From: Candidatus Babeliaceae bacterium
GTDB taxonomy: Bacteria; Babelota; Babeliae; Babelales; Babelaceae
Assembly: GCA_016933915.1 (NCBI GenBank)
Contig: JAFFZZ010000069.1
Span: 71 to 64,070, forward strand
Direction of reading: 5' to 3'
DNA length: 64,000 nucleotides
Below, piece after piece: positions 14,344-55,461 of this stretch (within the stretch, counting starts at the first letter, position 1; each line of letters starts with the position of its first letter). The notes beneath the pieces are model-generated. The model was not told the DNA's origin, did not search any database, and was given only the letters and a program-made list of their open reading frames with translations. A program made the position numbers and the translations under genes.

Positions 14344-14414
14344 GTTTCCCCCTAAAGGCACGTTTTTTATTTTTTAAATTTTTTCAAAAATCACTGACAG
14401 TTCGGGCTCCTTTT

Positions 14415-14459: not shown

Positions 14460-16217
14460 TTATTTCTTTGCGCGCAAAGCTGATGCAGACGTGAAATTTA
14501 TGGTTTGGTGGGCAAATAAATTGTGGGAGTTTTCCCAGTATGTTGGTTTTTGAAGCCGTAATGCGACGCATTCATTAATAATTTTTTGAAGAGTTTTGCC
14601 GTTTGCTGCTTTATTTTCGCCGTTATTTTTGGTGCAGGTACATGTTTCTTGTATTTTCTCCAGCTCACCATCCATTAGTCTGACCGCTTCTGCATATAAT
14701 TGTTCTTCACTTTTGTCTGAGTTCGTGTTGTTTTGATGGTGTGGGTTGAGCTGCTGAATAATAATGCTATATTTCCCCAGTTTTAATAATTTCATCTGCA
14801 AAAAAAGTTGTCTTAGGTGCTGGTGCAGAGGGTGTGTTTTATTATCGAAATAGAGCAGCTCTCGCTCGAGTTTTTCGGGGGTAATAATGACTTCATTCCC
14901 TGTGCGAATTGAGATGTAATCATAGAGGATTTCAATAAGAACCGCAAAATCAAGGCGTTGGGTAAAGGGTGGGGTGCTTATGAGATTTCTTTTTTCACGG
15001 AGCCAGCGAATTGTATGGGCGTAGATATTGCCGATTTTTGTCCCTGATTTTTGATCGGGAAAAAGTGCTGTGAACTCGCGAGCGAGAAAATAAGGAACGA
15101 GTTCTTCGTTTTGCTCGGGAAGATCATCTCGGTTGTCTACGATTTCGAATTTCGTTGCAACGAAACGCCAGGTTGCCGCTTGTACAGCATGCTTAAAATG
15201 AATAATGGCGTTTTTTATACCGTAGCAGCCTTTGCGTTCAAGCTTAAGCCATGTTTCGCCGGTGTCAGGGTTGACGTAACAGAGTAAATGTTCGAATTTG
15301 CCGAGGAGCGGGGCATCAAAACCATCACGTTTTGGAGATATTTCGATTCCGAGTCCCTGCGGGAACTCTTTATGCGTGCTGGCGCGCCAGTATGCATACT
15401 CATTACTTCCAAACCAGTGGTTGCCGTTGGGTTTGCCGAGTTGGTGGCCATATGCTTCGATAAGTTGTTGATAGCAGGTAATGAGTTTCCCAAAAGATGG
15501 TTCAGTAATATGGAAGGTTCCCTCAACAAAACCGAGTTCTTTGATAATGGTGATTCCGCTCCGGTCTTTTATAACGCGTGGTGCGGTTGAGCAAAAATAG
15601 TAGAAGAGTGTTATTTTGCAGATAATCTGTAAAAGCGTTTTTCTTGTTTCTTCTCTTTGGTCATCGCTTTTATCGATTGGCTGGTTGTTTTGATGTGCCG
15701 CTATAATTTTTTGAGCGTCATGATACGATTTAAACAGCTTGCTTTCTAGATTATTTTCCAGCATCGCTTGTATGAATTTTGCTCCATCATTGAGAAGGCT
15801 TTGTGACTCTGTCCCGACAAGGTCAACACTACTTGGTGAGGAGACGTAATTTTCATCAAGACTCTGACGAAGGATAGAGCCAATTTTTTGCCAGATAGGG
15901 GTTGCTTCGGATCGTTGTTGATTTGTATTGCTGAAAAAAATGTGCGGATTCTTTTGGATCGTAAGTTGATGCGGTTCTGTACGCCACCAACAGAGCTTTG
16001 AGAGGATGTTTGGCTTTACGAGTAAAAGTGCTAAGGCCGAGGTGCTGATGACGCCGTAAGGATGACCCTTAACAAATTTGACAACTTTTGATGAAAACGA
16101 GCCAGAACTTTTTGATTCTTTATGCTCTGTGTTTAAGGGGTAACCCTTTGTTATGCCAGTAAATGCGATAGAAAAGGCATATATGCCATAACACATAAAA
16201 CGGATATGTCTTTTCAT
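14460..16217 (-). CDS. Secreted/membrane-anchored protein, orphan family (shorter paralog of 11026-14343)
   Basis: 585-aa ORF with a hydrophobic N-terminus, the same VKFVKGHPY motif followed by a hydrophobic segment, and a core collinear with its neighbour (LFYYFCST ... ERKGC ... GNEVIITPEKLE). Confidence 0.8.
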   Translation of the reverse strand: MKRHIRFMCYGIYAFSIAFTGITKGYPLNTEHKESKSSGSFSSKVVKFVKGHPYGVISTSALALLLVKPNILSKLCWWRTEPHQLTIQKNPHIFFSNTNQQRSEATPIWQKIGSILRQSLDENYVSSPSSVDLVGTESQSLLNDGAKFIQAMLENNLESKLFKSYHDAQKIIAAHQNNQPIDKSDDQREETRKTLLQIICKITLFYYFCSTAPRVIKDRSGITIIKELGFVEGTFHITEPSFGKLITCYQQLIEAYGHQLGKPNGNHWFGSNEYAYWRASTHKEFPQGLGIEISPKRDGFDAPLLGKFEHLLCYVNPDTGETWLKLERKGCYGIKNAIIHFKHAVQAATWRFVATKFEIVDNRDDLPEQNEELVPYFLAREFTALFPDQKSGTKIGNIYAHTIRWLREKRNLISTPPFTQRLDFAVLIEILYDYISIRTGNEVIITPEKLERELLYFDNKTHPLHQHLRQLFLQMKLLKLGKYSIIIQQLNPHHQNNTNSDKSEEQLYAEAVRLMDGELEKIQETCTCTKNNGENKAANGKTLQKIINECVALRLQKPTYWENSHNLFAHQTINFTSASALRAKK

Positions 16218-29154: not shown

Positions 29155-29160
29155 GAAAAT

Positions 29161-29245
29161 AGGGAAGCCCGTAAGAGGTCGTCGCAGAATCTGTCAGGTC
29201 CGAAAGGAAGCAGCAGGGGCGATCAACTCTGTACAGGCTTCTCTT
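29161..29245 (+). ncRNA. ffs: Signal recognition particle RNA (4.5S-type)
   Basis: GTCAGGTCCGAAAGGAAGCAGC (29193-29214) matches the conserved SRP RNA domain IV, which in E. coli 4.5S reads GUCAGGUCCGGAAGGAAGCAGC. The flanks AGGGAAGCC and GGCTTCTC close a long hairpin and a T5 run follows. It sits directly upstream of dnaX, as in Bacillus subtilis. Confidence 0.8.
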
Positions 29246-29276
29246 TTTAAAGATGCGCTTTTGTAAGGAATGATTA

Positions 29277-36795: not shown

Positions 36796-37488
36796 ATGAA
36801 ACCAGTTACGCCTGTTGCGCATTCATTATGGGATGTTATTATAACCTCAAGCGTCCTTAGTAAAATTATTTTAGTAGGGGCATCGATTGTCCTTATTTTA
36901 TGTTTTTTTATTTTTATTTATAAAATGTTGGTACTTCAGGAAAAGAGACGAAGACTTGCGCGTGCGATGGAATCGTTGCAGGAAGCCTCCTCTTTTAATG
37001 AGTTGCTTAATCTGGGGGCAACGCTTGGTGGTACTGCCGCAGGGTGGCTTATTAGCTACGGTTTGAAAGCGGTAAAAGCGATTTTGCAACACGGCGGTGA
37101 AGCAAAAACAAAAATGTCGGCAGCTGAGGCAGTTATTTTTCAAGAGGTAATGGAACAAGGGGTAGGTGAGATTGCCCATAAAGAATATGCGTATCTGCCG
37201 GTCTTATCGGTAAGCGCAGCGGTGGCGCCATTAGTTGGTCTTTTTGGTACCATTTCTGGACTCATTCAAGCATTTATCGTTGTCGGGCAAGAACGGAGTA
37301 CCGATATTACAGCAATTGCTCCTGGTATTGCTGAGGCGTTGATTACCACTTTTGCTGGATTGGTGGTCGCTATCCCGGCTTTTGTTATGTATCATTATCT
37401 TTTGAATGCGGTGCGTGATTTTGAGCGACAGCTCGTTGCCTTTGAATATCAGTTTGAATGGTTTGTAAAGCGATTGCTTGTCGAATAG
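36796..37488 (+). CDS. tolQ: TolQ/ExbB-family proton channel
   Basis: Three TM segments and the MotA_ExbB signature IAPGIAEALITTFAGLVVAIPAFVMYHYL. It is first in a tolQRAB-order cluster. Confidence 0.8.
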   Translation: MKPVTPVAHSLWDVIITSSVLSKIILVGASIVLILCFFIFIYKMLVLQEKRRRLARAMESLQEASSFNELLNLGATLGGTAAGWLISYGLKAVKAILQHGGEAKTKMSAAEAVIFQEVMEQGVGEIAHKEYAYLPVLSVSAAVAPLVGLFGTISGLIQAFIVVGQERSTDITAIAPGIAEALITTFAGLVVAIPAFVMYHYLLNAVRDFERQLVAFEYQFEWFVKRLLVE

Positions 37489-37496
37489 GGGGCGTA

Positions 37497-37910
37497 ATGA
37501 GAAGGCGTAGATTGTTTACGATTCCTGGGGAAGAGCCCCAGATAACGTTAACTCCGCTCATTGATACGGTTCTCGTATTACTGATCACCTTCATGATAGC
37601 AATGCCGGTGATGCATAATATCTTAAATATTGAGTTGCCAAGCAGTTCATCGGATGATGCGCAAGGCGATAAATTACAGGGAGTCACCGTATTCCTGGAT
37701 AGAGACCGCCACCTATGGGTCAATGAGAAAGAGATTGCCCGTGCAGATTTGACACCAGAAGTTGAGCGTATTTTAGGCGCTGCTCGGGATCAGGTTGTTA
37801 TCGTGAAGGCCGATAGGCTTGTTCCGTACGGTGAGGTGGCTGGAATTGTCGATGATATCAAATACCTCGGTGGAGTGCACTATGTCGCTCTTGCAACGGA
37901 GCATGCATGA
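37497..37910 (+). CDS. tolR: TolR/ExbD-family protein
   Basis: The ATG at 37497 follows the SD AGGGGG. ITLTPLIDTVLVLLITFM is the ExbD TM signature. Confidence 0.8.
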   Translation: MRRRRLFTIPGEEPQITLTPLIDTVLVLLITFMIAMPVMHNILNIELPSSSSDDAQGDKLQGVTVFLDRDRHLWVNEKEIARADLTPEVERILGAARDQVVIVKADRLVPYGEVAGIVDDIKYLGGVHYVALATEHA

Positions 37911-38970
37911 TTTTGAGCGAGAAGCTCGTTTAAATGCGCTTTCCTGGGCATTTGCTTTGTATATGGCGATACTCTGGGGGTTGCTTTCTCTTTATGATTG
38001 GCGTGCCGATGTAGTAGTTGTACGGTTGGGACGTCGTTTATCACCCGCTTCTGTTCGTCTTACTTCTGGTAGTAAAAAGGAGAAAAGGCTTCTTCGTGAG
38101 AAAGGTGGGGGGCCGCATACGGGAAGAAAGCGTGGGAATGACCGGCGTAAGTTGCAAGAAAAATCGAGCGAAACAGAAATAGCAAAGAAGCGGCGGGCGG
38201 CGGAGCGAGAAGCAAAACGTCTTCGTGTCGAGCATGAGAAGTTGATGCGTGAACGTGAAGAGGCTAAAAAACGTGCATACGCTGTTCGCGAGCGGGAGCG
38301 AATGCAACAACGTGAGAAAGCAGCGCAGCAAAGGGCTGCCATTGAAAAAGAGCGCAAAGAGCAGGAGAGAGTCCGAGTAGCAGCGGCTCAGAAAAAACGA
38401 GAAGCTGAACGCCAAAAAATAAGAATGAAAGAGCAGTGTCGCGTTGCCGAAGAGGCACGTAAAGCGGAAGAGCGACGAAAATTGGTTACACAAAAAAAGT
38501 CGCGAGAAAAACAATTACAAAAGGCTACGCCCCCTAAAGAAGAGCTTCCTGTTGCTTCGGAAGATATTGATGAAAAGATCGTTGATTTAGAAAAGCGCAT
38601 TGTTGAGGTGGAAGAGACTGCTTCGGTTCAAGATTACAATGAAGAAACGGGCGGTGATGACTCTAGCGAAGAAGTCGTTACTCTTGGTGAAGATGCCGAC
38701 GGGGGAGAACTTTCGCGAGATGTTGCAGCGCTAATGCATGCCCTGGAGCGCGTATGGCGTCCGCCACGTGGACTAAGTGCACATCTTGCCGTAAGTGCTC
38801 GGGTGACGCTCGGAGGAAAAGGTACCGTTACTGAGGTGGTGCTTGAGAAAGAATCAGGAGTTCTTGCTTTTGATATGGCGGCGCGTGCGGCTTTGTGGCG
38901 GGTAACGTATCCAACGGGATTCTGGGGTAAATCGATAATCATCGTTTTTGGTGGCACCAGCAAAAAGTAG
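37882..38970 (+). CDS. TolA-like protein (TM anchor, long Lys/Glu/Arg-rich helix, TonB/TolA-type C-terminal domain)
   Basis: TM segment LSWAFALYMAILWGLLSLY, ~200 aa of charged repeats (EKERKEQERVRVAAAQKKREAERQK), and a C-terminus VSARVTLGGKGTVTEVVLEKESGVLAFDMAARAAL. The start is either 37882 or 37903 (the latter overlaps the tolR stop). Confidence 0.6.
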   Translation: MSLLQRSMHDFEREARLNALSWAFALYMAILWGLLSLYDWRADVVVVRLGRRLSPASVRLTSGSKKEKRLLREKGGGPHTGRKRGNDRRKLQEKSSETEIAKKRRAAEREAKRLRVEHEKLMREREEAKKRAYAVRERERMQQREKAAQQRAAIEKERKEQERVRVAAAQKKREAERQKIRMKEQCRVAEEARKAEERRKLVTQKKSREKQLQKATPPKEELPVASEDIDEKIVDLEKRIVEVEETASVQDYNEETGGDDSSEEVVTLGEDADGGELSRDVAALMHALERVWRPPRGLSAHLAVSARVTLGGKGTVTEVVLEKESGVLAFDMAARAALWRVTYPTGFWGKSIIIVFGGTSKK

Positions 38971-38975
38971 GGGGC

Positions 38976-40319
38976 TTGATGCGTGCGATTAGACAAATGC
39001 TTTTTTTAGGGGTGATTGCCGGCAGTTTTGCTGTGGCCGATGAATTGGTGATTCATGTCCCAAATCGACTTGATGGTTACAAAGATAGTGGTTGCCTTGA
39101 ACAAAAGGTAGCTTCTATGCGAATGTATCTCGGATATTGGCATCAAGGTCTTGTGGGAGCCAGCAGAAAATTTGCGTATGATCTTCGGGATTGCCTTCAA
39201 TTTGACAACCTTTTTGATGTTGAGTTGGATGCTCTGTCGAGTGCACCTGCCACGAAAGAAGCGATAACCGGACTTTTTTCGGGTGGGTTTGATGCTGCTC
39301 TTTTTATTGGGTATGACGGCGGTGACGAGAAGGCTGTTGAATGGCGGCTGTATGATACTCGGCAGGGAGCAATGATTGCGGGGCGTCGACTGGTGATAAA
39401 AGGTGATGAGCATGAAGCGGTGCTTGCGGTAGCTGAAATGGTGGTCAAGGGGCTCATGGGTGAAGCACCGCCGTTTTTATCGAAGATTGCCTTCGTTGAA
39501 AAAAAGAAGGGGGGGCGAGGAGCAGCTGTTCTTTCGGTTATTGGTGTCGACGGCAAAGGAATGCGCAAAATATTTGAGTCGTCGAGTCCTCTTGTTAGTC
39601 CGGTTTGGTTTCCTGATGGCAAAAAGCCGTTTGTAATTCTGTCGCAGTTCACCAGGAAAAATGTTTCTTTTGTTGGTGTTGATATGGCGGGAAAGCGGTA
39701 TCCATTGCACATCGTAAGTACCAATGCTTCGAAAAAGAAGTCGGGTGAAGGAACCTATGTGGGTCTTTCCTATGGAAATTCGGTTGCAGACGTAGCATTT
39801 GGAAGATCGGGTAAGATATGGCGGTATCATCCCGCTACTGGGGCAGAGCAGCTTAATGTTGGAAGTTTTCGTGTTTGTGCTTCTCCTAACTTGCTTCCTG
39901 ATGGCAGTATTATATTTTGTGCTGATGGTAAAATATATTTGTTTGACGTTCAGGAAAAAAAATCGCGTCTTTTGGTTGGTGGTGGCTTTTGCGTTGGACC
40001 TTCTTATACGCATAGTGAGCAATCTGTTGTTTTTTCAAAGCGAGTGAATCGGGTTATGCAGCTTTTTCTTCATAATTTGAGGACGGGGGAAACGCGACAA
40101 CTGACTCATGATTCTGGTAATAAAATTGATCCGAGTTGGTCACCCTGTGGGCAATACGTAGCATTCGCCTGGGAACAGGGGCCTCGTTGTCGTATCGGAG
40201 TTTTAAGCATTCGGTCAAGTCAGAGAAAAAATCCGTACTGGCTGGTGACTCCAGGGAATCTCTGTTGTATTAGTCCGTCTTGGTCTCCTCGATTTGAAGG
40301 AGGGCTTTTCCTCCCTTGA
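38976..40319 (+). CDS. tolB: TolB periplasmic beta-propeller protein
   Basis: Signal peptide MMRAIRQMLFLGVIAGSFAVA and propeller repeats (VSPVWFPDGK, ASPNLLPDGS, DPSWSPCGQYVAF, ISPSWSP). Its position after tolQRA supports the call. Confidence 0.75.
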   Translation: MMRAIRQMLFLGVIAGSFAVADELVIHVPNRLDGYKDSGCLEQKVASMRMYLGYWHQGLVGASRKFAYDLRDCLQFDNLFDVELDALSSAPATKEAITGLFSGGFDAALFIGYDGGDEKAVEWRLYDTRQGAMIAGRRLVIKGDEHEAVLAVAEMVVKGLMGEAPPFLSKIAFVEKKKGGRGAAVLSVIGVDGKGMRKIFESSSPLVSPVWFPDGKKPFVILSQFTRKNVSFVGVDMAGKRYPLHIVSTNASKKKSGEGTYVGLSYGNSVADVAFGRSGKIWRYHPATGAEQLNVGSFRVCASPNLLPDGSIIFCADGKIYLFDVQEKKSRLLVGGGFCVGPSYTHSEQSVVFSKRVNRVMQLFLHNLRTGETRQLTHDSGNKIDPSWSPCGQYVAFAWEQGPRCRIGVLSIRSSQRKNPYWLVTPGNLCCISPSWSPRFEGGLFLP

Positions 40320-40420: not shown

Positions 40421-43048
40421 ATGAAAATGAAAAATAAATGGGGGAAGCTGAAAGGCTCCCCACGCAATATCCTGATATTTCTGGCCTTTTTCGCCGCGAG
40501 TCTTTTTGTACTGACTCGACTTGCTGAGCAGGGGCAGGGAACTAAACCTCTCTCATATTCCGAATTTTTGGCTAGCGTTGAGCGCGGAGAGGTTGAATCT
40601 GTCCACGTAGCCGGTTCTCAGGCATTTGGCAAATTGAAAGATGGTAAGCGTTTTGAGGCTACTATTGCTGAAAACCCGAAAAACTGGGATCTCTTGCGGG
40701 AGCACAAGGTGGCGTTTTCGGTAGCTGAACCTGAAGGCTCCTTTGGGTTTGGGTATCTCTTTGTCATTCTTGTTGTTGGCGCTGTTCTCCTTCTTATCTG
40801 GTACGGTATTCGTCAGATTCGTGGTTCCGGTGGTTCGAGTGATATTTTTGATATCAAGAAGAGCAAGGCGCGTATGTTCCTACCGGCCCAGGTCAAGGTA
40901 AAATTCGATGATGTTGCTGGGGCTGATGAGGCGAAGCAAGAGTTGCAGGATATTGTTGATTTTCTTAAAAATCCATTAAAGTACCGAAAGCTTGGTGCCG
41001 AGCTGCCACGAGGGATTCTTCTTGTTGGTGAGCCTGGTAATGGTAAAACGCTTCTCGCCAAAGCTGTTGCTGGAGAGGCAAACTGTCCCTTTTTCAGTGT
41101 AACCGGATCTGATTTTATAGAGGTTTTCGTGGGGGTGGGTGCAGCTCGTATACGTGACCTCTTTAATGAGGCGCGAAAACATGCGCCATGTATTGTCTTT
41201 GTCGATGAGATTGATGCCATAGGCCGACGCCGTGGTAGCGGTCTCGGCGGTGGTCATGATGAGCGTGAGCATGCATTGAATCAGCTTTTGACTGAGATGG
41301 ACGGGTTTGCAAGTGCCGATACCCCGATAATAGTTATTGCAGCAACAAATATGCCAAGTGTTCTCGATCGTGCCCTTCTCCGTTCTGGCCGTTTTGACCG
41401 GCGGGTAACAGTGCCGTTTCCTGATGAACAGGCGCGACGACGTCTCGTTGAGATTTATACTCGTAAAGTTCAGCTTGCACCTGACGTTGATGTGGACAAG
41501 ATTGTTAAAGAGAGTGCTGGTTTTAGCGGCTCTGATCTCACCAACTGTGTGAATCAGGCGGCAATAAATGCTTCGAAGAATGGGCGAGATCAGGTGACGC
41601 AGGAAGACTTTAACGTTGCTTTTAATAAGTTGATTGAATCGCAAAAAGCGAGCCGCAACGAGCATAAAACAACCGGTGAAGAAGAGGGTACGGCGCGTGT
41701 TTATATGCCTTCTCAGATCAAAGTTAGGTTTTCTGATGTTGCTGGTGCCGAAGAGGCTAAGGAAGAGCTTTGCGATTTTATCGATTATTTGAAAGACCCG
41801 GAAAAGTATAAAAAAATTGGTGCAAAATTAACTAAGGGGATTCTCTTAGTTGGTGATCCGGGTAACGGGAAGACGTTGCTTGCCCGTGCGGTTGCGGGGG
41901 AAGCTGGCCGTCCATTCTTTAGTGCAAGTGGTTCCGAGTTTATCGAAAAGTATGTTGGGGTGGGTGCGGCGCGAGTTCGTGATCTTTTTGCGCAGGCACG
42001 TCGTCTTGCACCAAGCATCATTTTTATTGATGAGATAGATGCTATTGGTCGCCGCCGTGATGGCGATGGTGGTCATATGGAGCATAGCCAGACGCTTAAT
42101 CAGCTTCTTACTGAAATGGATGGTTTTGAGACCTCCGGCGCGTCGGTTATTGTGATGGCCGCGACAAACCGTCCTGATGTCCTTGATAAAGCTTTAACGC
42201 GTGCTGGACGATTTGATCGTCAGGTTAACGTGCCGTATCCAGATTTGAATGCCCGTAAAGGGATTCTTGATATTCATGTTCGTGGGGTAAAGCTTGCGGA
42301 AGAGGCAGATCTTGAGAAGATTGCTCGGGGAACTTCTGGTTTCAGTGGTGCTGATCTTGAAAATCTGGTTAATGAAGCTGCGATTAATGCTATCCGCGGG
42401 AATCGTGAAGAGATTGTTATGGCGGATTTTGAAGAGGCGCGAGATAAGATTTTGATGGGTAAACGCTCGAAATCGATGATTCAAACACCTGAAGATTTGC
42501 AGGCGACGGCTTACCATGAGGCTGGCCATGCATTGATGACGCTCTTGCAGCCGGATGTGACGGATCCGTTGCATAAAGTAACCATTGCGCCGCGGGGTAG
42601 AGCGCTCGGTTTTTCTGCAAGTTTGCCTGAGCGTGACCGGTATGCTCATAGCAAGGAAGAGCTTGTTGCTAAGATTATGGTTATGTTAGGTGGCCGTATT
42701 GGAGAAGAAATTGGTATTGGGCGGCAATTTACGGGGGTAACCTCTGATTTTGCGCGAGCGTCTGATATGGCGCGACGTATGGTGCGTGAGTATGGTATGT
42801 CGGAGACGTTGGGGCCCGTCTCGTACGTCAATAAGGGCGATTATTCGGAGGAAACTGCATCTAAAGTTGATGAAGAAGTGCGGCTCTTGCTTATTCGCTG
42901 CTATGAGCAAGCGAAGTCGATGATTATGACCAACAAAGATAAGTTGGAAAAGTTGACTCAGGCGCTTCTCGCCAAAGAGACGCTTGAAGCGGATGAGATA
43001 TATGACCTTTTGGGTATTGCTCCGCGAACGTATCATAAGTTGGCGTAA
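40421..43048 (+). CDS. ftsH: FtsH-family membrane metalloprotease with duplicated AAA+ module (TM-peri-TM-AAA-AAA-M41)
   Basis: Two TM segments are present. AAA-1 spans aa ~155-410 ([24 protein letters not shown]). AAA-2 spans aa ~428-680 ([24 protein letters not shown]). The zinc site HEAGH lies at nt 42515-42529. The whole is one uninterrupted 875-aa ORF. Confidence 0.9.
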
Positions 43049-43354: not shown

Positions 43355-43636
43355 ATGGCAAATACAAAATCTGCTAAAAAAAATATTCGTAAAAACGAAA
43401 AGCGTCGTTTAGTTAATATAGCGCGTCAGACAGCCTTGAAGACTGCAGTTAAGAAGGTTTCTGCCGCCCTTGAAACAGGCGCAAAAAAGTTGTCGCTCGA
43501 TGAGCTTTTGAGCTCAGCGGCTTCGCAACTTGGTCGTGCCAAAGGTAAAGGTACCATTCACGCAAATGCTGCGGCGCGCAAAATAAGCCGCTTGGCGAAG
43601 AAGGTCGCTCAAGCACAGCGTAGTACTGGGGCGTAA
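43355..43636 (+). CDS. rpsT: 30S ribosomal protein S20
   Basis: MANTKSAKKNIRKNEKRRLVNIARQTALKTAVKKV matches the S20 signature. Confidence 0.9.
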   Translation: MANTKSAKKNIRKNEKRRLVNIARQTALKTAVKKVSAALETGAKKLSLDELLSSAASQLGRAKGKGTIHANAAARKISRLAKKVAQAQRSTGA

Positions 43637-43817: not shown

Positions 43818-45665
43818 TTAATCAGGGATTTTTTGTCCAATATTTGTCAGGACAGCGTCGATTTCTTTCAGTGTTTTTTCTTTCCCGCCTGAAGAGAGGA
43901 AGGTTGTCTGAGAAGAACGAATAGTATGGTTTTCAATGGGAGGTTTTTGGGCTTTTTTTTCAGCTTGTTTTTTATATTCAGTGAAGAATTTTTTGGCCAA
44001 AGCCGTTGCTACCCGTGATGAGCCGGTGTTTTCTATAAGAATGACAAGGACGATTGGTTGGTTATTTTTATAGCTGCCGTATCCAGCGAACCAACCGTGC
44101 GGTAGGAATTTTTTGCCCTGTGTCTCTCTGTTTAAAATTGTCGTCTGTGCTGTTCCTGTTTTTGCATATAACTCAAAGTCTGTAAGGGAGCTCAATGCAT
44201 AACCCGTACCCCTTTTTATCATCTGGCTCATTGATTTCATGAGAAACTTTCGTGTTCGGGGTGATAGGGTAACTGGTTGTTTATCAATAGATTCTTCGAG
44301 CAGGATCCGTGGACGAACAAGTGATCCGGTACAGATTGCTCCAGTCATTCGTGCAATCTGAAGCGGGGTGACGAGGGTGTAACTTTGGCCAATTGCTACC
44401 TGCATTGTTTCACCTTTCCACCATGATTGACGAAATTTTTTTCGTTTCCATGCTGCTGTTGGAATCAAGCCTCTGCCCTCGGCAAAGAGGATCCCTGTTG
44501 GGGATCCGAGTCCTAGTTGCTGTGCGTAGCGAGCGAGAATGTCTACCGAGAGTCGTTTTCCGATTTCATAACAAGGAATATTACATGAGACAGCGAGGGC
44601 GGTGTATGGATCGAGAGTGCCATGCCCTGCGCGGCGATTACAATGGTAGATACGCCCCCCGTACTCTATACTTCCGGTGCAATTCCAGCATGTCCCTTGC
44701 TCAAAGACGACATTCTCTTCAAGCCCCGCTGCCATGGTTACCAGCTTGAAAAGCGATGCGGGCGGGTAACTACTGAGAGCTCGGTTGATGAAAGGCCGCT
44801 TTCTTTTACACTGTTCCCACGTATCAATACTAATAGGTCCAATGAACATATTTGGATCAAATGTTGGGCGCGATATCATTGCGAGAATGTCACCACAGAG
44901 TGGATCCATAACGATGATGGCACCATCTTGCTCCTCATCCATAAGTCTCTCTACGATGAGTTGAAGATCGAAATCGATGGTTGTTTGTAATGGTCGTCCC
45001 GCTTGTGCTGCTTCTACTTCACGAGAAATCAAAAGTTTGCCGCATGAGTTGACCATATTTTCGCGGGCACCTGGTTGTCCTCGTAATTGTTCTTCGAATA
45101 GCTTTTCGAGACCGAGTGTTCCTGCTCGATGGTGTTCAGTATCTCTGAAATAACCAAGGATGTGGCTTGCAACTGTCCCGTGGGGATAATAACGAGTTGC
45201 TGTTGTTACGACTGCAAGATTGGCGCAGGCCGGGAATTGCTCCATGATGATACCAAGGCGTTCAAATGAGAGATCTTCGATAAGTGTGTACTCTTTACAA
45301 CGTCCTTCAGCTTCAAGGAGATCGTTGTCGCCAAGAAGGGAAATGTTGAGTACTCGTTCAATCGAACGGAGAAGTTCAAGTTGATCATTCGATAATTTTT
45401 TTTTACCGGTACCGCGCCAAACAAGACGCGCTACCGGACGGTTGGTGGCAAGAAGACGACCATGACGATCTAGAATAGCACCACGTGGTGAGGTGATTTT
45501 TTCATATCGAAGAAAGTTGCGGCGGCTATGCTTACGAAATGTATCGGCGTGATAAATCTGAAAATATACGAGTGCAAGTCCTATTGAGGTGCAGAGAATG
45601 ATTATGAAGAGTCCGATAAGGCGGAGCCGATTTTTGACCAGATAGGTTGGTGGCAATCTTTTCAT
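43818..45665 (-). CDS. mrdA: Penicillin-binding protein 2-type peptidoglycan D,D-transpeptidase (PBP2/FtsI family)
   Basis: N-terminal TM anchor, PRGAILDRHGRLLATNRP, and the transpeptidase motifs SLFK (SxxK), SCN (SxN) and KTGTA. I cannot separate PBP2 from FtsI by eye. Confidence 0.75.
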   Translation of the reverse strand: MKRLPPTYLVKNRLRLIGLFIIILCTSIGLALVYFQIYHADTFRKHSRRNFLRYEKITSPRGAILDRHGRLLATNRPVARLVWRGTGKKKLSNDQLELLRSIERVLNISLLGDNDLLEAEGRCKEYTLIEDLSFERLGIIMEQFPACANLAVVTTATRYYPHGTVASHILGYFRDTEHHRAGTLGLEKLFEEQLRGQPGARENMVNSCGKLLISREVEAAQAGRPLQTTIDFDLQLIVERLMDEEQDGAIIVMDPLCGDILAMISRPTFDPNMFIGPISIDTWEQCKRKRPFINRALSSYPPASLFKLVTMAAGLEENVVFEQGTCWNCTGSIEYGGRIYHCNRRAGHGTLDPYTALAVSCNIPCYEIGKRLSVDILARYAQQLGLGSPTGILFAEGRGLIPTAAWKRKKFRQSWWKGETMQVAIGQSYTLVTPLQIARMTGAICTGSLVRPRILLEESIDKQPVTLSPRTRKFLMKSMSQMIKRGTGYALSSLTDFELYAKTGTAQTTILNRETQGKKFLPHGWFAGYGSYKNNQPIVLVILIENTGSSRVATALAKKFFTEYKKQAEKKAQKPPIENHTIRSSQTTFLSSGGKEKTLKEIDAVLTNIGQKIPD

Positions 45666-46498
45666 CGAAGATAGCGCTCCGTGCTAATGCGGGTTGTATG
45701 ACCGAGTAATTTTTGCACTGTTGCGAGATCTGCCCCTTGTTCAAGAAGATGAGTTGCGAATGAGTGGCGGAGTATCTGGGGGGTGAGCCTTTGCTTTGGA
45801 AGAAGTTTGCCGAATGCGTTACAAATACGTTGAATAGATCGCGCCGTTAGTGGTTCACCGCGTTGGTTTAAGAATAGAAATTCTTCATTGCTTTCAGGAT
45901 GAGGTCGTTCTTTGATGAGATAATGAGTAAGCTGTTCCGCTGCTTTGGGTCCAAAGAATACTGTTCGTGGTGTACGCCTACCAGAGCGAATAAGTAGTGT
46001 CTTTTGTGCGATATCAAGATTTATCAGCTGCAAGTTGGCAAGTTCTGCGCTTTTTATACCGGTGGCATACAAAAGTTCAAGAATAGATTTATCGCGATGT
46101 GGGACATTGGTTGGGAGTTGATCATCTGGAATTTGATCGAGAATAAGTACAAGGGAGTGAATTGAAATAATTTCAGGTTTTTTAGCGGGAACCAGGGGCC
46201 GTGCGAGTGCTGTTTTTTGGTCAGGTTGCACGAAGAGTAGGAATGAGTTGAGACATGAAGTTTTGCGTGCGATAGTGCTAGCTTTCATTTTGCTGCGTAC
46301 GAGCTCTTTTTTGTAAAGTGTAAATGTTTTAACAAATGGAAGTTTTGTTTTTTTTTCTGTTTCTTTGTTTTGCCAAAATCTAAAGAAAAGTGTCAGGTCG
46401 GCTTCATATGCGCGACACGTGTGTGTCGATCTCCCTTGATTTTCTTTGAGAAAGTGAATAAATGGAGAAATGGATTGCAGCAACGTTTCCTGTTCCAT
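45662..46498 (-). CDS. Tyrosine recombinase, XerC/XerD family
   Basis: N-terminal SAM-like segment FLKENQGRSTHTCRAYEADLTLFF. Catalytic C-terminus RHSFATHLLEQGADLATVQKLLGH...TERYLR. Its stop overlaps the PBP2 start by 4 nt. Confidence 0.8.
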   Translation of the reverse strand: MEQETLLQSISPFIHFLKENQGRSTHTCRAYEADLTLFFRFWQNKETEKKTKLPFVKTFTLYKKELVRSKMKASTIARKTSCLNSFLLFVQPDQKTALARPLVPAKKPEIISIHSLVLILDQIPDDQLPTNVPHRDKSILELLYATGIKSAELANLQLINLDIAQKTLLIRSGRRTPRTVFFGPKAAEQLTHYLIKERPHPESNEEFLFLNQRGEPLTARSIQRICNAFGKLLPKQRLTPQILRHSFATHLLEQGADLATVQKLLGHTTRISTERYLR

Positions 46499-48754: not shown

Positions 48755-51571
48755 ATGGATGCCAAAAAGTCATCTGCGGCGAAGATGGCCGATTTTAAGG
48801 AGTCTCTCAATCTTCCCCGTACCGATTTCCCGCTCCGCGCAGATGCTTGCATTAATGACCCCATTATGCTTGAGCGCTGGGAGAAGGAAAAGCTCTATGA
48901 GCGAGCGATGAGGTGCCATGAAGGCGCCTCGCGCTTTGTCCTTCATGATGGCCCCCCTTATGCGAATGGACACATCCATTTGGGGCATGCCTATAATAAA
49001 ATTCTCAAGGATATTCTTGCCAAAGCGCGGCGTATGAGTGGGATGCAGGTTCCTCTGGTTCCCGGTTGGGATTGTCATGGTCTTCCTATTGAGCATCGAG
49101 TAAAACAGGAAAATCCAACGCTTACGGGGACTGCGCTTAAAGCGGCGTGTCGAGAGTCTGCATATACCTGGATTAATATCCAGCGCTCTGAATTCAAGCG
49201 TTTGGGTATTTTAATGGATTGGGAGCATCCATATATTACGATGGCTCCGCGGTATGAGGCAGCTATTTTGCGTTCATTTGGCAAGCTTGTACGAGGTGGT
49301 TTTGTCGAGCGAAAAAACAAGACTGTTCCCTGGTGCCCACATTGCCAAACGGCTCTTGCGGCTGCAGAGATTGAATATCAGGATCGAGAAGATCCGTCTC
49401 TTTTTATCAAGTTCAAAGTTACTTCAGAAACAGCGCAAAAACTTGGACTAACTGATAAGCCCGTATCATTTCTTATCTGGACGACAACGCCGTGGACGAT
49501 CCCGTTAAACCGTGCTGTTCTCCTGCGTCCGGGGGCTGCTTATAAGGTTATTGAGTATAACGGGGAGTACCTGGTTTTGGGGGCCGAGCGGGTTGCTTCA
49601 GTGATTACTGGGCGGGGGCTTGGCTCTGATTTAACCGTAAAAAAAGTGATTCCTTCAGAGATGCTTGCAGGAGAATTGCTCTGGCATCCCATTGATTTCG
49701 ATCGTCAGGTGCCGGTTATTCTTGATCAGTCAGTTGGTCTTGATGAAGGTACTGCGTGTGTGCATTGTGCGCCAGGGTGTGGCCCCGTGGATTATGAGGT
49801 CGGAATAAAAAACAATCTCGAAATATATTCACCGGTAACAGCAGATGGTCGGTATTCGGTTGGTATAGTTCCTGCAGAACTTCAGGGAAAAACAATAGCT
49901 GAGGGGCAAAAATGGGTAACGGAATATGTAAAAAAAACGGCAATGTTGTTTGCTGAAACTCGTATTATACATAGTTATCCGCACTGTTGGCGTTGCCGTA
50001 AAGGCCTTATTTTCCGTGCGACACCGCAATGGTTTTGCAATCTTGCGCATGACCACGTTAAAGAGAGGGCGCTTGCCGCTATTGAGAAAATAGATTTTAT
50101 GCCGTCGCAGGCAAAAAATTTCCTACGAGCTACTATCGAAAGTCGTCTTGAATGGTGCCTCTCGCGCCAGCGACTGTGGGGAGTTCCTATTCCGGCGTTG
50201 GTTTCAGGTGATCAAACAACTGCTCTTATCACAGAAAAATTAATTTCTTTTGTTGCTGATCATGTTGAGAAAGAAGGTGTTGAGTTTTGGGATCGTATTT
50301 CGCTTGACGAGCTTGTTAAAGCTGATGTTGTTCCCGCTGATGCGGTTGCTGCTGGTTACAGAAAAGAGACCGATATTATTGATGTCTGGTTTGATTCTGG
50401 CGTGAGTCATACAGCGGTGCTGCTTCTTAATCCAGAGCTCCATTTTCCTGCTGATCTCTATCTTGAGGGTGTCGATCAACATCGGGGTTGGTTCCAGAGT
50501 TCACTTCTGACAAGTATCATTTTGCATGATGAAGCGCCGATGAAGGCGATCATGACGCATGGGTTTACCGTTGATGATCAGGGACGTAAGATGTCCAAAT
50601 CGCTGGGGAACGTGGTTGCTCCGGAAGAACTCATTGAGAAGGTGGGAACTGATGGATTACGGCTTTGGGTTGCAAGCATAGGCAATGAGGGTGATGCGGT
50701 AGTTTCAAAAGTTCTTATAGAACATGTGTCACTTGTGTATCGAAAAATTCGTAACACGTGTCGCTTCTTGTTGCAGAATCTCTATGACTTTTCCATTGAA
50801 CGCGATGCGGTATCATTTGAGCATTGTTCGGCGATTGATAGGTATGCTCTCTATCAGTTGATGCGCCTGCAAGAGCGTGTTTTGGAAGTGTATAAACAGG
50901 GGAATGTGACGGCCATTTTTCATCTATTGAATGATTTTTGTACGGTCGATATGAGCGCCTTTTATGGGGATGTAGCAAAAGATTGTCTCTATTGTAACAA
51001 AGCCGATAGTCAGGAGCGGCGCGCAGTGCAGACGGTTTTCTGGCGTATCCTTGATACGTTGGCGAAACTTATGGCACCTATCTTATCCTTTACGGCAGAG
51101 CAGCTTTCTGATTATTACCAGACCGATAAGAAAGAGTCGATTCATCTTCAATGTTTTGCAGATCATGCAGCATTACGCCGTCTTTTTGCAGCAGTTGATA
51201 CCGTTGCCTATGAAAAACAATGGGCGTTGGTGAAAGAAATTCGCTCTGTGGTTTTGAAGCTGATTGAAGAGCAGCGGGCCGCGGGGCTTGTCAAGCATTC
51301 ACTTGATGCTGCAGTTGATCTCTTTATTGATGATATGTCCCGTCTTTCAATAATTGAAGAGAAAGAACTCGAACGCTTTTTCGCTACTGTTTTTATTGTT
51401 TCACGAGTACGGCTTATCCCTTCACCAGAAGGGCTTGTCGTTACACCGGTTGCTGGTGTATTGGCTAAGGTAACGGCAGCGTCGGGAACGAGATGTCCTC
51501 GTTGCTGGCAGTGGCACGAGCAGGATTGCGTTCTCTGTAAACGTTGCGCCTTGGTAGTTGATGCGGACTAG
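48755..51571 (+). CDS. ileS: Isoleucine--tRNA ligase
   Basis: PPYANGHIHLGHAYNKILKD (HIGH motif), KMSKSLGNVV, and a C-terminal zinc motif CPRCWQWH...CKRC. Confidence 0.95.
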   Translation: MDAKKSSAAKMADFKESLNLPRTDFPLRADACINDPIMLERWEKEKLYERAMRCHEGASRFVLHDGPPYANGHIHLGHAYNKILKDILAKARRMSGMQVPLVPGWDCHGLPIEHRVKQENPTLTGTALKAACRESAYTWINIQRSEFKRLGILMDWEHPYITMAPRYEAAILRSFGKLVRGGFVERKNKTVPWCPHCQTALAAAEIEYQDREDPSLFIKFKVTSETAQKLGLTDKPVSFLIWTTTPWTIPLNRAVLLRPGAAYKVIEYNGEYLVLGAERVASVITGRGLGSDLTVKKVIPSEMLAGELLWHPIDFDRQVPVILDQSVGLDEGTACVHCAPGCGPVDYEVGIKNNLEIYSPVTADGRYSVGIVPAELQGKTIAEGQKWVTEYVKKTAMLFAETRIIHSYPHCWRCRKGLIFRATPQWFCNLAHDHVKERALAAIEKIDFMPSQAKNFLRATIESRLEWCLSRQRLWGVPIPALVSGDQTTALITEKLISFVADHVEKEGVEFWDRISLDELVKADVVPADAVAAGYRKETDIIDVWFDSGVSHTAVLLLNPELHFPADLYLEGVDQHRGWFQSSLLTSIILHDEAPMKAIMTHGFTVDDQGRKMSKSLGNVVAPEELIEKVGTDGLRLWVASIGNEGDAVVSKVLIEHVSLVYRKIRNTCRFLLQNLYDFSIERDAVSFEHCSAIDRYALYQLMRLQERVLEVYKQGNVTAIFHLLNDFCTVDMSAFYGDVAKDCLYCNKADSQERRAVQTVFWRILDTLAKLMAPILSFTAEQLSDYYQTDKKESIHLQCFADHAALRRLFAAVDTVAYEKQWALVKEIRSVVLKLIEEQRAAGLVKHSLDAAVDLFIDDMSRLSIIEEKELERFFATVFIVSRVRLIPSPEGLVVTPVAGVLAKVTAASGTRCPRCWQWHEQDCVLCKRCALVVDAD

Positions 51572-53523
51572 CTTTTCATTGGCTGTGCAATCTGAGCGAG
51601 GCTGTTTGCGAGTTTGTGCATAATGAGTTGTTCGTAACGTTCCTTAGGGGAAAGTTCGGCTTTTACCAGTTCCTTTATTCTGCTGATTGAGGTATTTAAA
51701 ATTGATTGTTCCTCTGGTGGGAGTAGATCTGCTTTAATATCTTTAAGCAGTTGTGCTAATTTCGCTTTCTTAAGGGTATTCAGAGCATTTCCTGGGTCTG
51801 TTGGTAATTCATTTTCCTTTTGATAGACATAGTGTTTGGAGTAATCCATCTCTTTTTCTTTTCCGGTCGTTGTATCTATTTCAGCGGGATAATGTGATTC
51901 TTTGAGATTTAAAAACGTAAATTGGCCTTTAAAATCTTTCGTTACTAATGTGTCGATGATAAATACTTTATCTTCGCCTGTCATGATCATCTGAAATGAT
52001 TCGGGGACAATCTCACTGAATTTCCAGTCCTTTGCATTGATCTCTTTGATGTGATGAACAGCGGTTCGTGGAATGAGCGAGATAAAGTGCGGCGGAATTT
52101 TTGCTCCTGTTGGTCGTGGAATGATGAGTTTAAAAGGTATCTCTGCTGCTTCAAGTGTAATGACAGCTGGCAGCATTTTTTGGCCCGTCTTTATGCCCTT
52201 TTTGATTTTTTCTTGTGACTGTGCAAAAAAGTCCCTGACATTAAGATCACGTCCATGGCTCTTTGCTAACACTTTTCCGATTTTAACCATACAACCTTCA
52301 GGAGATTCGAGCAATGACATCCATTCACGGCCAGGAAATCTAATGGAGGGAATGTGTGAAAAGCGTTCTAGGAGGTAGATTTGATCATCAGGATTAGCAG
52401 CTTCAGCCCAAACATCATAATCGGTATAGAGGGGCGCGATTGTGCCTATAAGGTTGAAGAATGAGTATTTTTTTGGGTTATTGAAAAATTCTTTGAAATT
52501 GGGTGAAAAAGTGGCGGTCGTGAAGGCAGATGTTGGCGTGCTTGTTGAAGTGAGCGACATTATTGGGTAGTTATATGTTTCACCGAGAAGATCTTTGCGA
52601 TCACTTCTGGTTGCTTCCAGCACGTTTATGTCTGCCCCGTAACAGGTGTTGAAAATGAAAAGATAGGTAAAGATTTTATTGTTGAAAAAATTAAGAAGTT
52701 TCTTAAAATCTGAGATGTAGAATCCGGCGATTATACCTTTAAAACCAGCTTTTCCGATGGCCTCACGTGCTTTTTGGTCGATTCCGGTTGCTATGTATTG
52801 GGCATATTTATAGTCAAAAAGTTGCTGAGCATCTTTCGGTGTACGGCGATAGTCGCCATGATCATTGAGGTAAATAAGCCAGACCGGCTCTTTAAATTTT
52901 TTTTCTATAATCTCTTCGGTATAATCTTTATGCGTCATGAAAATGTTTTGTAGACATTCAAAAAATTCATTGGCAAAAGGTGTTAGGAGCGTTCGTGGCT
53001 CACCTCTTTTTATTTCAATGAAAAATTGAGACGTCATTGAAATAGGCGCTACTTCTCTTTTAATGTCTTTGATTACTGCCGGGGAGGGATGGTCTATTTT
53101 AAGGCCGAGAATGATCTCACGTTTGGTGAAAGCACCCACCTTATCGGTTGATGTTGCTTTGATATCGGTGAGATATGTTTTGGGAATGAGTAGGAAAAAA
53201 TGTTCCGAAGCTTTAAATGCAAGCCAGTTGTCTAGAAATGTTTCATTACCTTTTTCAATCAAAAATTTTCTTGTGTCAAAGAGAATGTTTGCACTCACCA
53301 GAAGCGGTGCCGCTTGTTGCTCGATAAAGAAAGAGACTGAATTTTCGACAAAGCACTCTGTGTTTTCCTCTTGCCCCATGCTTGGAAATATGCCGATACC
53401 ACGAATTGGAGCATCGGGAAATGGGTGCAATGGTTTTATGGAAGAAGGAATTGTTTTTGTTGGTAAAGAGATGGCGTATGTAATGAGTATGAGTCCCGTA
53501 AAAAGGAGGGAGACTTTTTTCAT
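51568..53523 (-). CDS. Secreted orphan protein with candidate clan-CD-like His-Gly/Cys dyad (paralog of 53608-55461)
   Basis: The ATG at 53523 follows the SD GGAAAG (the track ORF runs to 53574). Signal peptide MKKVSLLFTGLILITYAISLP. WLIYLNDHG has its His codon at 52860-52858, and YLFIFNTCYG has its Cys codon at 52644-52642. It is collinear over its full length with its neighbour. Confidence 0.75.
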   Translation of the reverse strand: MKKVSLLFTGLILITYAISLPTKTIPSSIKPLHPFPDAPIRGIGIFPSMGQEENTECFVENSVSFFIEQQAAPLLVSANILFDTRKFLIEKGNETFLDNWLAFKASEHFFLLIPKTYLTDIKATSTDKVGAFTKREIILGLKIDHPSPAVIKDIKREVAPISMTSQFFIEIKRGEPRTLLTPFANEFFECLQNIFMTHKDYTEEIIEKKFKEPVWLIYLNDHGDYRRTPKDAQQLFDYKYAQYIATGIDQKAREAIGKAGFKGIIAGFYISDFKKLLNFFNNKIFTYLFIFNTCYGADINVLEATRSDRKDLLGETYNYPIMSLTSTSTPTSAFTTATFSPNFKEFFNNPKKYSFFNLIGTIAPLYTDYDVWAEAANPDDQIYLLERFSHIPSIRFPGREWMSLLESPEGCMVKIGKVLAKSHGRDLNVRDFFAQSQEKIKKGIKTGQKMLPAVITLEAAEIPFKLIIPRPTGAKIPPHFISLIPRTAVHHIKEINAKDWKFSEIVPESFQMIMTGEDKVFIIDTLVTKDFKGQFTFLNLKESHYPAEIDTTTGKEKEMDYSKHYVYQKENELPTDPGNALNTLKKAKLAQLLKDIKADLLPPEEQSILNTSISRIKELVKAELSPKERYEQLIMHKLANSLAQIAQPMKS

Positions 53524-53607
53524 AATAAACTTTCCGCGCTCAGACCAATTCACTTTGATGAATAAGATATCCAAAGAAAATGTTTGATGGCAATAGATTT
53601 GGTTCTG

Positions 53608-55461
53608 TTAGTGGCGAGTTATATATGCTCCGATTTTGTTGGTAGCGCTCCTAAAGAGAGTGAAAAATGTTTTGGTTGCCGACGTACATATTTCGGCTAG
53701 AGGGTCCCTGAAAAAGTTGCGACGTCGATGCCTTCTGCTTTGCTGAATCTCTTTGAGCAGTGTTTGAGCTTTTTCGATATATTTTTTGTACGCCCTTTTT
53801 TTCTTGGTGATTATTCGTGTGGGATCTTCGATGAAAAATGCACCTGCCTTTTCATCGTTATAGGCGATGAAGAGATGTGTAGCATCACCATTCTCGGTGT
53901 GTGAAGGCCTGAGATTAAAGAAGATGCAGCGCCCTTCGAAATCTTTGACGTGTAATCTTTCAACAACGAATATTTTGTCTTCGCCAGTATTTGGCATTGT
54001 GAATGCTTTTTTAATTTCTTTCAGGCTCCAGTCAGGTGCTATTATTGCAGAGAACGAATGAACTGCTGATCCAGGTGAGAGAGAGATGAATTGTGGTAAT
54101 TCATCTCGTTTCCCCGTGCGTTCAATAGTAAGAGGACAGGTGATTTTTTGTGTCTGAAGAGTAATGACAGCGGGAAGTGTTTCATCGATCCGTGAAATAC
54201 TGAGAGGATTTCCCCGCTGTTTACATACGGTCTTTTTGCTGATGGAGAAAATAGTGGCATCTGGCGATTCGATTAGTTCGATCCAGTTGCGATTAGGAAA
54301 TTTAATGCAAGGAATTTGTGGTGAGCTGTCCTGGCGGGATAGATCAAAATCTTCCCACTCTTCTTGGTCATCATAAAACGAGGTTATCGTTTTAATAAGA
54401 TTAAGATAGTTACGACAATCAAAGCGTGTTTTTGGACTTATATTTGATGGTTTTTTAGCGGATGCAGCTTTAAAAAATCTCTCATAGTCTGGTGCGCCAA
54501 GTTGCCAGACGGGTGTGCTCGTTGCGGTAAAGGCGATGATGGGAAAACGGTAATTTTCAAGAGTTTTTCCATTGTTCGACCAATCTTGGAGAAAATCGTG
54601 CAGGTTTTCTCCGCCGCTAAAGCAGGATGTGAAGACTGTCGCAGCAGTATTTATCTGCTTGTTGCAGAAGGCTAGAAGCTCTTTTACTTCAGATGGACAC
54701 ATTCCACTGAGTGAGCCAGAGACCTCATCGATATCTGTTTCTTCTGGATTGTCGTGCCAGATGATGCATCTGTTTTCGTGAATAATGGTAGCAAGTTCTG
54801 AATGTGGGGTTCCGTGTGCATCGGCAAGAATGAGCCATTGAGGCTTTTCGAAGTTAGACGGAATATCACCAATTTTTTGCGCTGTTGCATAATCGTTATT
54901 GGTAACAAAAAGGTTTGGAAGTTGCGCGATAAGCTCGCCTATAGCGGGGGTATGTTTTTCCCATGTGTTAAGATTTTCGTTGTACTTAAGAAGTGGTGTT
55001 GCAGGAATCCTTGTTCTGAATGTTTTTTTATCGCTTCGTTCTGTCTCGTCGAGAGTAGTATAATGGTCAATTTTTAGCCCAAGGATTAGTTCACGTTTAC
55101 TAAGGCCTGAAACGAGTTGTTCTGTTTTATCAGATACTATGAGATGTGATGGGACAACTAACACAAACATATCGGTTATTTTGTATATCTTCCAGTCTTC
55201 AAGGTCATCTGTGAGAGAGGGGGTGATGCTGAGCGCATTGTACAATAAATTGTTGCTGATGACTGCTGGCGCTGATTCCGATCTAATAAATGCTGGGATT
55301 GCCTGGTAAGAAAAAGGAAGCGAATCATCATGTACCTTTTCTGTGTAATCGACAAAGAACGCTATGCCTCGACTAGCAACAGGCTGAATCTTTTTACGTG
55401 TTGCTTGTGCTGGCACGCAAAAGAAATAGAGAATGGTAAGGGTAATAAGATACCGCTGCAT
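53608..55461 (-). CDS. Secreted orphan protein with candidate clan-CD-like His-Gly/Cys dyad (paralog of 51568-53523)
   Basis: Signal peptide MQRYLITLTILYFFCVPAQA. WLILADAHG has its His codon at 54816-54814, and ATVFTSCFSG has its Cys codon at 54624-54622. Blocks shared with the paralog: KRE-ILGLKIDH, TSTP, LPAVITL, FISL-P-(T/S)AVH, GEDK-F. Confidence 0.75.
   Translation of the reverse strand: MQRYLITLTILYFFCVPAQATRKKIQPVASRGIAFFVDYTEKVHDDSLPFSYQAIPAFIRSESAPAVISNNLLYNALSITPSLTDDLEDWKIYKITDMFVLVVPSHLIVSDKTEQLVSGLSKRELILGLKIDHYTTLDETERSDKKTFRTRIPATPLLKYNENLNTWEKHTPAIGELIAQLPNLFVTNNDYATAQKIGDIPSNFEKPQWLILADAHGTPHSELATIIHENRCIIWHDNPEETDIDEVSGSLSGMCPSEVKELLAFCNKQINTAATVFTSCFSGGENLHDFLQDWSNNGKTLENYRFPIIAFTATSTPVWQLGAPDYERFFKAASAKKPSNISPKTRFDCRNYLNLIKTITSFYDDQEEWEDFDLSRQDSSPQIPCIKFPNRNWIELIESPDATIFSISKKTVCKQRGNPLSISRIDETLPAVITLQTQKITCPLTIERTGKRDELPQFISLSPGSAVHSFSAIIAPDWSLKEIKKAFTMPNTGEDKIFVVERLHVKDFEGRCIFFNLRPSHTENGDATHLFIAYNDEKAGAFFIEDPTRIITKKKRAYKKYIEKAQTLLKEIQQSRRHRRRNFFRDPLAEICTSATKTFFTLFRSATNKIGAYITRH

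Follow-up and report, generated by a model that had tools for sequence, protein, structure and literature searches.

Two complete AAA modules in the housekeeping FtsH protease of Dependentiae, and a wider set of multi-AAA FtsH proteins

To our knowledge, no membrane-anchored AAA+ protease other than FtsH is universal in both bacteria and organelles. In textbooks and reviews it is presented as an enzyme with one ring and a weak unfoldase. Tandem AAA proteins of the same classical clade (p97, NSF, Pex1/6, NVL and VAT) all stack their rings, as far as we know. The two rings of ClpA form a known double-ring protease motor, and among the AAA+ proteases of E. coli only ClpA has two AAA+ modules, according to Shih, Sauer and Baker 2024 (PMC11570520). 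In archaea, VAT/Cdc48 can feed the 20S proteasome (PMC6017811). Here we describe an FtsH that carries two AAA modules ahead of a single protease domain. It is encoded in a 64,000-nt stretch of DNA from a Candidatus Babeliaceae bacterium (contig JAFFZZ010000069.1; hereafter, the window), by an uninterrupted open reading frame (ORF) of 875 aa at 40421..43048 on the plus strand. Pfam and NCBIfam matches, with hydropathy, resolve the product into a periplasmic domain flanked by two transmembrane helices, a pair of complete AAA+lid modules, and a single M41 domain.

Reading from the N-terminus, the first transmembrane helix (aa 13-36; 40457..40528) exceeds 1.6 in a Kyte-Doolittle window and corresponds to a helix at 14-37 in the AlphaFold2 (AF2) model. 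It is followed by the periplasmic FtsH_ext domain (aa ~37-104; 40529..40732), recognised by a match to PF06480 at residues 17-96, and by a second transmembrane helix (aa 105-134; 40733..40822), placed by hydropathy and by an AF2 helix at 110-132. AAA module 1 (aa 150-410; 40868..41650) comprises a pre-AAA strand, a large domain and a lid; it was delimited by Pfam AAA and AAA_lid_3 matches, by its motifs, by invariance in 120 relatives, and by a predicted local distance difference test (pLDDT) score of ~80-90. A charged linker containing KTTGEEEGT (aa 411-424; 41651..41692), with pLDDT below 50 at 412-423 and low conservation in the family consensus, leads into AAA module 2 (aa 425-683; 41693..42469). 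The lid of module 2 includes the hinge glycine G680, and the module was placed by Pfam, by its motifs and by superposition on AFG3L2. The Peptidase M41 domain (aa 688-862; 42482..43006; PF01434, E 7e-55) carries the HEAGH zinc site at residues 699-703 (nt 42515-42529) and an invariant E762 that, from its position in the GGRxxEE motif, is probably the third zinc ligand. All of these features lie on the plus strand.

Both modules have the motifs of an active classical-clade ATPase. In module 1 these are the Walker A motif GEPGNGKT (203-210), the pore loop FVG (236-238), the Walker B motif FVDEID (260-265), the sensor-1 ATN at 308 with N310, and RSGRFDR at 321, which supplies the Arg fingers R321 and R324. 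Their counterparts in module 2 are GDPGNGKT (478-485), YVG (511-513), FIDEID (535-540), ATN at 581 with N583, and RAGRFDR at 594 with R594 and R597. The first-pass annotation, made from the letters alone, had proposed two complete AAA modules and one M41 domain. The Pfam scan bears this out, with two AAA, two AAA_lid_3 and one Peptidase_M41 match, and every motif in its list, including HEAGH, lies at the residue it gave. The offset of 275 aa that it reported between equivalent residues holds as far as Walker B, but beyond that point a 2-aa indel reduces it to 273 aa. Its tally of 57 identities in 74 positions was too high: a recount gives 54-55 of 74, or 46 of 63 when the stretch is limited to Walker A through Walker B. 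Overall, the two modules are 56-59% identical over ~260-280 aa.

Profile scores place the protein in the FtsH family. The NCBIfam model TIGR01241 (FtsH_fam) scores 1087.9 bits against a cutoff of 600, with the match falling in two stretches, while the narrower E. coli-type equivalog NF008004 reaches 853.5 bits, under its cutoff of 1008. The Cdc48/p97 model TIGR01243 also stays under its cutoff (474.6 bits against 802.65) and the N-domain of that family is absent; in the same scan of the 875-aa protein the PAN model was under cutoff, and the ClpX and Lon models were far under theirs. The features that define FtsH are present: a membrane anchor whose transmembrane helices flank a periplasmic domain, a classical-clade AAA domain (here found twice), a C-terminal M41 domain with HEXXH in the same chain, and a seven-gene synteny that makes the gene orthologous to a housekeeping ftsH locus (see below). 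Where FtsH as a type I enzyme has one AAA module per protomer, this protein has two complete AAA+lid modules, and two tandem AAA modules in one polypeptide are the mark of type II AAA+ proteins. It does not belong to Hsp100/Clp class 1, as both modules are FtsH-type and closely similar to each other.

The window was taken from a metagenome-assembled genome (MAG), a provenance that raises the prospect of an artefact, whether a collapsed or expanded repeat or two genes fused. We consider this explanation exceedingly improbable. The modules share 60% nucleotide identity and no long repeat; the same codon is used at 43% of identical residues, and the longest in-register DNA match between them is 27 nt at 78%. 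An NCBI entry that comes from a Candidatus Babeliaceae MAG has exactly the sequence of the 875-aa protein. Three species-representative genomes of TM6 (L001-L003) also carry the two-module gene. The layout is seen again in at least 120 clusters formed at 90% identity, with proteins of 846-925 aa that match the window protein at 96-100% coverage and 54-80% identity. These clusters derive from assemblies in NCBI, JGI, ENA and Logan, some of them with contigs 0.9-1.3 Mb long, and wherever they carry a taxon name it is Dependentiae, Babeliales or TM6. Moreover, each module forms its own orthologous group across genomes (bootstrap 86 for the module 1 clade). Because the DNA has diverged and the layout recurs across many independent assemblies, we rule out an assembly stutter or gene fusion, in agreement with the initial view that the duplication is old.

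We next consider whether both copies are maintained. Among 120 two-module relatives of the window protein, the Walker A lysine, the Walker B DE, the sensor-1 asparagine, both Arg fingers and the D-G-F motif are present in both modules of all 120, and so the suggestion that both copies keep their catalytic motifs extends to the whole set. The pore-loop position is aromatic throughout, with F in 118 and Y in 2 for module 1, and Y in 104 and F in 16 for module 2. H699, E700, H703 and E762 of the protease domain are invariant. Pairwise identity among family members averages 0.678 for module 1 and 0.672 for module 2, and neither copy is decaying. From sequence conservation, then, both modules look active and under equal purifying selection.

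The two modules do differ in where they have diverged. We compared each module, by half, with the canonical FtsH consensus. In the N-terminal half, which holds the pore loops, Walker B and the GGGHDERE loop, identity to that consensus is 0.715 for module 1 and 0.672 for module 2, whereas in the half that comprises the lid and the region after the second region of homology (SRH) the values are 0.563 and 0.640, respectively. Module 2 has kept the canonical lid and the hinge glycine adjoining M41. This mosaic divergence fits a stacked arrangement in which module 1 would still face the membrane, with its lid removed from the protease, and module 2 would still sit on the protease.

Alternatively, module 1 could be an ATPase with a regulatory or spacing role, for instance as a nucleotide-gated lid, a platform for adaptors, or a means of holding the protease away from the membrane, with module 2 alone threading substrate. 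Many type II AAA proteins have one ring whose role is chiefly structural or regulatory, as with NSF D2 and Pex1/6 D1. The D1 ring of ClpA adds little grip (PMC11570520). The drift of the module 1 lid away from the canonical sequence would agree with such a role, as would the internal module of three- and four-module Omnitrophota proteins (described below), which often lacks RxGR and the pore aromatic. In Dependentiae, however, module 1 is conserved exactly as module 2 is, with invariant Arg fingers, Walker B and D-G-F motif and a pore loop that is always F or Y, and in the pore-loop half it is closer to the canonical sequence than module 2 is. We therefore regard a non-threading module 1 as unlikely.

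Insight into the origin of the extra module came from gene order. The window and L001-L003 share a run of seven genes with L004, a marine MAG (JABJEI010000001.1) whose ftsH (L004:5971-7821, with neighbours spanning L004:2657-11115) encodes an ordinary single-AAA protein of 616 aa. In the window, these genes, identified by Pfam, are TolQ (36796-37488, plus strand), TolA-like (37819-38970, plus), TolB-like (38976-40319, plus), FtsH, rpsT (43355-43636, plus), PBP2 (43818-45665, minus) and a XerC/D-like recombinase (45662-46498, minus), and the order is kept in L001-L004. Identities to the window across the seven genes are 30-55% for L004 and 31-73% for L001-L003. The N-terminal transmembrane and periplasmic region of the L004 FtsH scores 97 bits against a hidden Markov model (HMM) of the family N-terminus, far above other FtsH proteins.

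The AAA domains give a matching picture. Module 1 and module 2 are 0.615 identical, module 1 and L004 0.604, and module 2 and L004 0.636, as against 0.53-0.55 between any of these three and 112 other, canonical FtsH AAA modules. They also have in common the Walker A signature G[ED]PGNGKT, although it is not exclusive to this group. Because modules 1 and 2 and the L004 module are mutually closest, and because L004 combines synteny with a single AAA module and the same N-terminal domain, the extra module must have arisen by an ancient in-place tandem duplication within the housekeeping ftsH of this lineage. The first-pass annotation had likewise placed the rise of the double module within the FtsH lineage, which these identities and the sub-cutoff Cdc48 score support. 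Fusion with a foreign AAA module from Cdc48, PAN or katanin was considered and rejected, both modules being closest to one FtsH sublineage. In a neighbour-joining tree, modules 1 and 2 are united with a bootstrap of no more than 7-11, and three single-AAA paralogues make module 2 paraphyletic. L004 may either have split off before the duplication or have lost one module later; in either case it provides a natural single-ring counterpart for comparison.

The three paralogues in the tree, P0246 (L012:4658-6487), P0238 and P0260, are single-AAA FtsH-like proteins closest to module 2 and M41 of the Dependentiae protein. We considered them as single-AAA Dependentiae orthologues and rejected them, since their N-termini are unrelated and signal-peptide-like, and since the P0246 locus, which adjoins a Mur ligase and an H+-pyrophosphatase, differs from the ftsH locus. 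For the same reasons they are taken to be paralogues derived from module 2 and M41. Such paralogues fit the expansion of ATP-dependent Zn proteases reported in Babela massiliensis by Pagnier et al. (PMC4378268), where the two-AAA form of FtsH is not mentioned. Within the 64-kb window there is no canonical second ftsH. A complete Lon is encoded at window:22428-24836 on the minus strand, with a LON substrate-binding domain, AAA, Lon_lid and Lon_C, so that other AAA+ proteases are not in short supply here. This Lon and the FtsH paralogues weaken the view that a double ring makes up for proteases that have been lost.

We also asked how far multi-AAA FtsH proteins extend beyond Dependentiae. An exhaustive HMMER search covered 1.84 billion representatives, and modules were counted in the best 150 matches. 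Of these, 113 were canonical with one AAA module, 17 (18 with a looser filter) had two AAA modules and M41, 9 had three and M41, 1 had four and M41, and 2 were AAA-M41-AAA-M41 fusions. Three-module proteins P0121 and P0271 come from Thermoleophilaceae MAGs, and two-module proteins P0167 and P0441, of ~1,040 aa, from Melainabacteria. With the four-module protein P0127 as query, the best 120 matches revealed a large Omnitrophota family (P0127, P0321-P0438) of membrane-anchored proteins with tandem AAA modules and one M41 domain: 67 have two modules, 37 have three, 6 have four, and 1 has six. The six-module protein, P0322, is 1861 aa long with a single M41, and its modules are 45-79% identical to one another. 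In the three- and four-module members, an internal module is often without the RxGR motif or the pore aromatic. AAA-M41-AAA-M41 fusions of ~1,010-1,025 aa were observed alongside the Omnitrophota family.

The distance from one Walker A to the next is 275 aa in the window protein and 265-275 aa in all multi-AAA FtsH proteins of independent origin. Modules from the same lineage tend to group together, with joint clades at bootstraps of 90 for P0121 and P0133 (the Thermoleophilaceae group), 96 for P0137, 97 for P0251, 75 for P0214, and 67 for P0127 and P0136; the Melainabacteria modules form no joint clade (bootstrap 20). As modules cluster within each of several lineages, the sequences suggest that duplications across Omnitrophota, Thermoleophilaceae and Melainabacteria were mostly independent. 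The two-module layout is phylum-wide in Dependentiae, and multi-AAA FtsH, which recurs in at least three other phyla, is peculiar neither to this genome nor to this phylum. The first-pass annotation knew of no description of the architecture, while allowing that it might prove to be already widespread and characterised. Widespread it is, in Dependentiae, Omnitrophota, Thermoleophilaceae and Melainabacteria, but our full-text literature search, whose coverage of journals is incomplete, brought up no account of FtsH carrying two or more AAA modules, and in that search the Dependentiae genome papers made no mention of FtsH. Databases label the multi-AAA proteins merely as "FtsH" or "AAA family ATPase". 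The Dependentiae two-ATPase housekeeping FtsH is part of a wider, unrecognised set of multi-AAA FtsH proteases.

Structure models were used to consider how two modules might be arranged. The AF2 monomer (mean pLDDT 81) has both modules folded confidently and the linker disordered; the predicted template-modelling score is 0.51 for the whole chain and 0.47 for a fragment of residues 145-690, and domain placement is not fixed. Module 2 with M41 superposes on substrate-bound AFG3L2 (6nyy_E) with a template-modelling score of 0.88, at 2.7 Å. The structures nearest to the two-module fragment all belong to p97, Cdc48 or NVL and align with it colinearly over ~560 columns, with ~35% identity. The Walker A period from D1 to D2 of p97, taken from alignment offsets, is ~273, about the same as in multi-AAA FtsH. 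Since the monomer models leave the relative position of the modules unfixed, they speak neither for nor against stacking, and we infer ring stacking, hexamer formation, threading through both rings and a functional benefit.

The duplication took in a whole AAA unit of ~270 aa (pre-AAA strand, large domain, lid and short linker) and gave two modules before one M41 domain. In the mechanism we propose, the protein would form a membrane-anchored hexamer whose chains, like those of ordinary FtsH, are joined through the M41 ring. Ring 1 would lie beneath the membrane and engage substrate, ring 2 would sit on the protease, and the polypeptide would pass through the two pores in turn to reach the zinc-protease chamber. 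Both rings would probably hydrolyse ATP and grip the substrate. FtsH is regarded as a weak unfoldase (PMC9601784), and the gain for such an enzyme could be more grip or processivity, as with the two rings of ClpA or p97. On balance we favour, as the probable arrangement, a hexamer in which two stacked, active ATPase rings feed one protease chamber. The grounds for preferring this stack are the p97-like period, a six-fold M41 that needs six chains, the mosaic divergence, and the stacking of rings in the known tandem AAA proteins of this clade.

A different geometry would place modules 1 and 2 side by side. Three chains would then form one six-module ring in which the two modules alternate, with just three M41 domains and six transmembrane helices. 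The linker of ~14-25 aa is disordered and not obviously too short for this, and alternating heterohexamers occur among FtsH relatives, for example the m-AAA protease Yta10/Yta12 and the type A/B FtsH of chloroplasts. Such a trimer, however, would half-empty the six-fold ring of the M41 chamber, and yet M41 is no less conserved than in normal FtsH. The structures that most resemble the fragment are classical-clade tandem AAA proteins, and these stack. The FtsH AAA domain has its N-terminus toward the membrane and its lid end toward the protease, an orientation that suits head-to-tail stacking. Six Omnitrophota proteins among the best 120 matches have four modules and, as four does not divide six, these fit stacking better than a shared ring. 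We hold the side-by-side ring to be doubtful.

Several observations nevertheless weigh against a stacked hexamer. The two-module fragment fits p97 only one module at a time, with a root-mean-square deviation of ~21 Å when both are taken together, and the stacking geometry is not itself predicted. Covalently linked ClpX rings used linkers of ~20 aa, so neighbours within one ring can be joined over such a distance. The other Omnitrophota module counts, 2, 3 and 6, are all divisors of six, and the six-module chain with its one M41 (P0322) looks more like a single-chain ring. Finally, the organism itself has Lon and its relatives have extra FtsH paralogues, and a need for extra unfolding power is therefore speculative.

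The remainder of the window offers further observations on this organism. Two adjacent TLC-family ATP/ADP translocase genes (490 and 477 aa) lie at window:24948-27935; translocases of this family are the hallmark of intracellular bacteria that live as energy parasites. Pfam gave no match at E <= 1e-5 for six large ORFs, 575-1,379 aa in length (window:2954-7093, 7161-8888, 11026-14361, 14460-16217, 51568-53574 and 53608-55461). An 800-aa protein at window:55517-57919 on the minus strand has as its sole recognisable feature an internal DnaJ (J) domain at residues 319-359, and lineage-specific J-domain proteins have been reported in Babela (PMC4378268). At the right-hand end (window:59716-63904) are dnaB (plus), recF (minus) and dnaN (minus). 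The dnaN ORF, of 247 aa, is a good match to the central and C-terminal beta-clamp domains only, and the gene may therefore begin further upstream. Within window:29063-29250, a small signal recognition particle RNA (29158-29250) comes immediately after a tRNA, a second tRNA lies at window:34273-34345, and GC skew is positive in all 2-kb bins of the window.

We put at about even the broader proposition that FtsH has repeatedly turned from a single-ring into a multi-ring AAA+ protease, and that the essential FtsH of Dependentiae is a two-tier enzyme with both rings active. If so, the Dependentiae protein and the FtsH proteins with two, three, four and six modules would make up a natural series in which single-ring orthologues, among them that of L004, serve as built-in controls, and which could show how a type II AAA+ motor originates and what is gained from an extra ring. 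It would then follow that simple tandem duplication can turn a type I protease into a type II AAA+ protein, and can do so rapidly and time and again. Matched single- and double-ring orthologues would allow a test of what a second ring contributes to grip, processivity and the extraction of membrane proteins. Its longer members would have to stack three or more rings or else build a pseudo-hexamer from a single chain, and we know of neither in any AAA+ protease. Multi-AAA FtsH would also be a shared peculiarity of little-studied lineages, some of them host-dependent, such as Dependentiae, that current annotation hides. Omnitrophota, too, includes host-dependent members.

Compared with known systems, the protein is closest to canonical FtsH (E. 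coli 7vhp, T. maritima 7tdo/2ce7) and to mitochondrial AFG3L2 and YME1. It has the same two N-terminal transmembrane helices and periplasmic domain, and the same single chain of classical-clade AAA domain with SRH, lid, glycine hinge and HEXXH M41, but differs in the second AAA+lid module of ~275 aa inserted between the second transmembrane helix and the protease-proximal module. The multi-AAA FtsH proteins of Omnitrophota, Thermoleophilaceae and Melainabacteria share with it a transmembrane anchor, a variable number of AAA modules at a period of ~270 aa, and one M41. They differ in their separate origins, their 2-6 modules, their other N-termini without FtsH_ext, and their often degenerate internal modules, whereas both modules of the Dependentiae protein are intact. 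Like p97, Cdc48, VAT and NVL, the window protein has two tandem classical-clade AAA modules, a linker of ~20 aa and a Walker A spacing of ~273-275 aa; unlike them, it is without the N-domain, is membrane-anchored, and carries its protease in the same chain. Those proteins have an ancient D1/D2 pair, while here both modules are FtsH-derived. ClpA and ClpC with ClpP, in which a double-ring AAA+ motor serves a compartmentalised protease, are the functional analogue of the proposed mechanism (PMC11570520). Their D1 and D2 come from different AAA+ clades and their peptidase is a separate subunit of a soluble complex, whereas in the window protein the two modules are near-identical in type and fused to the protease.

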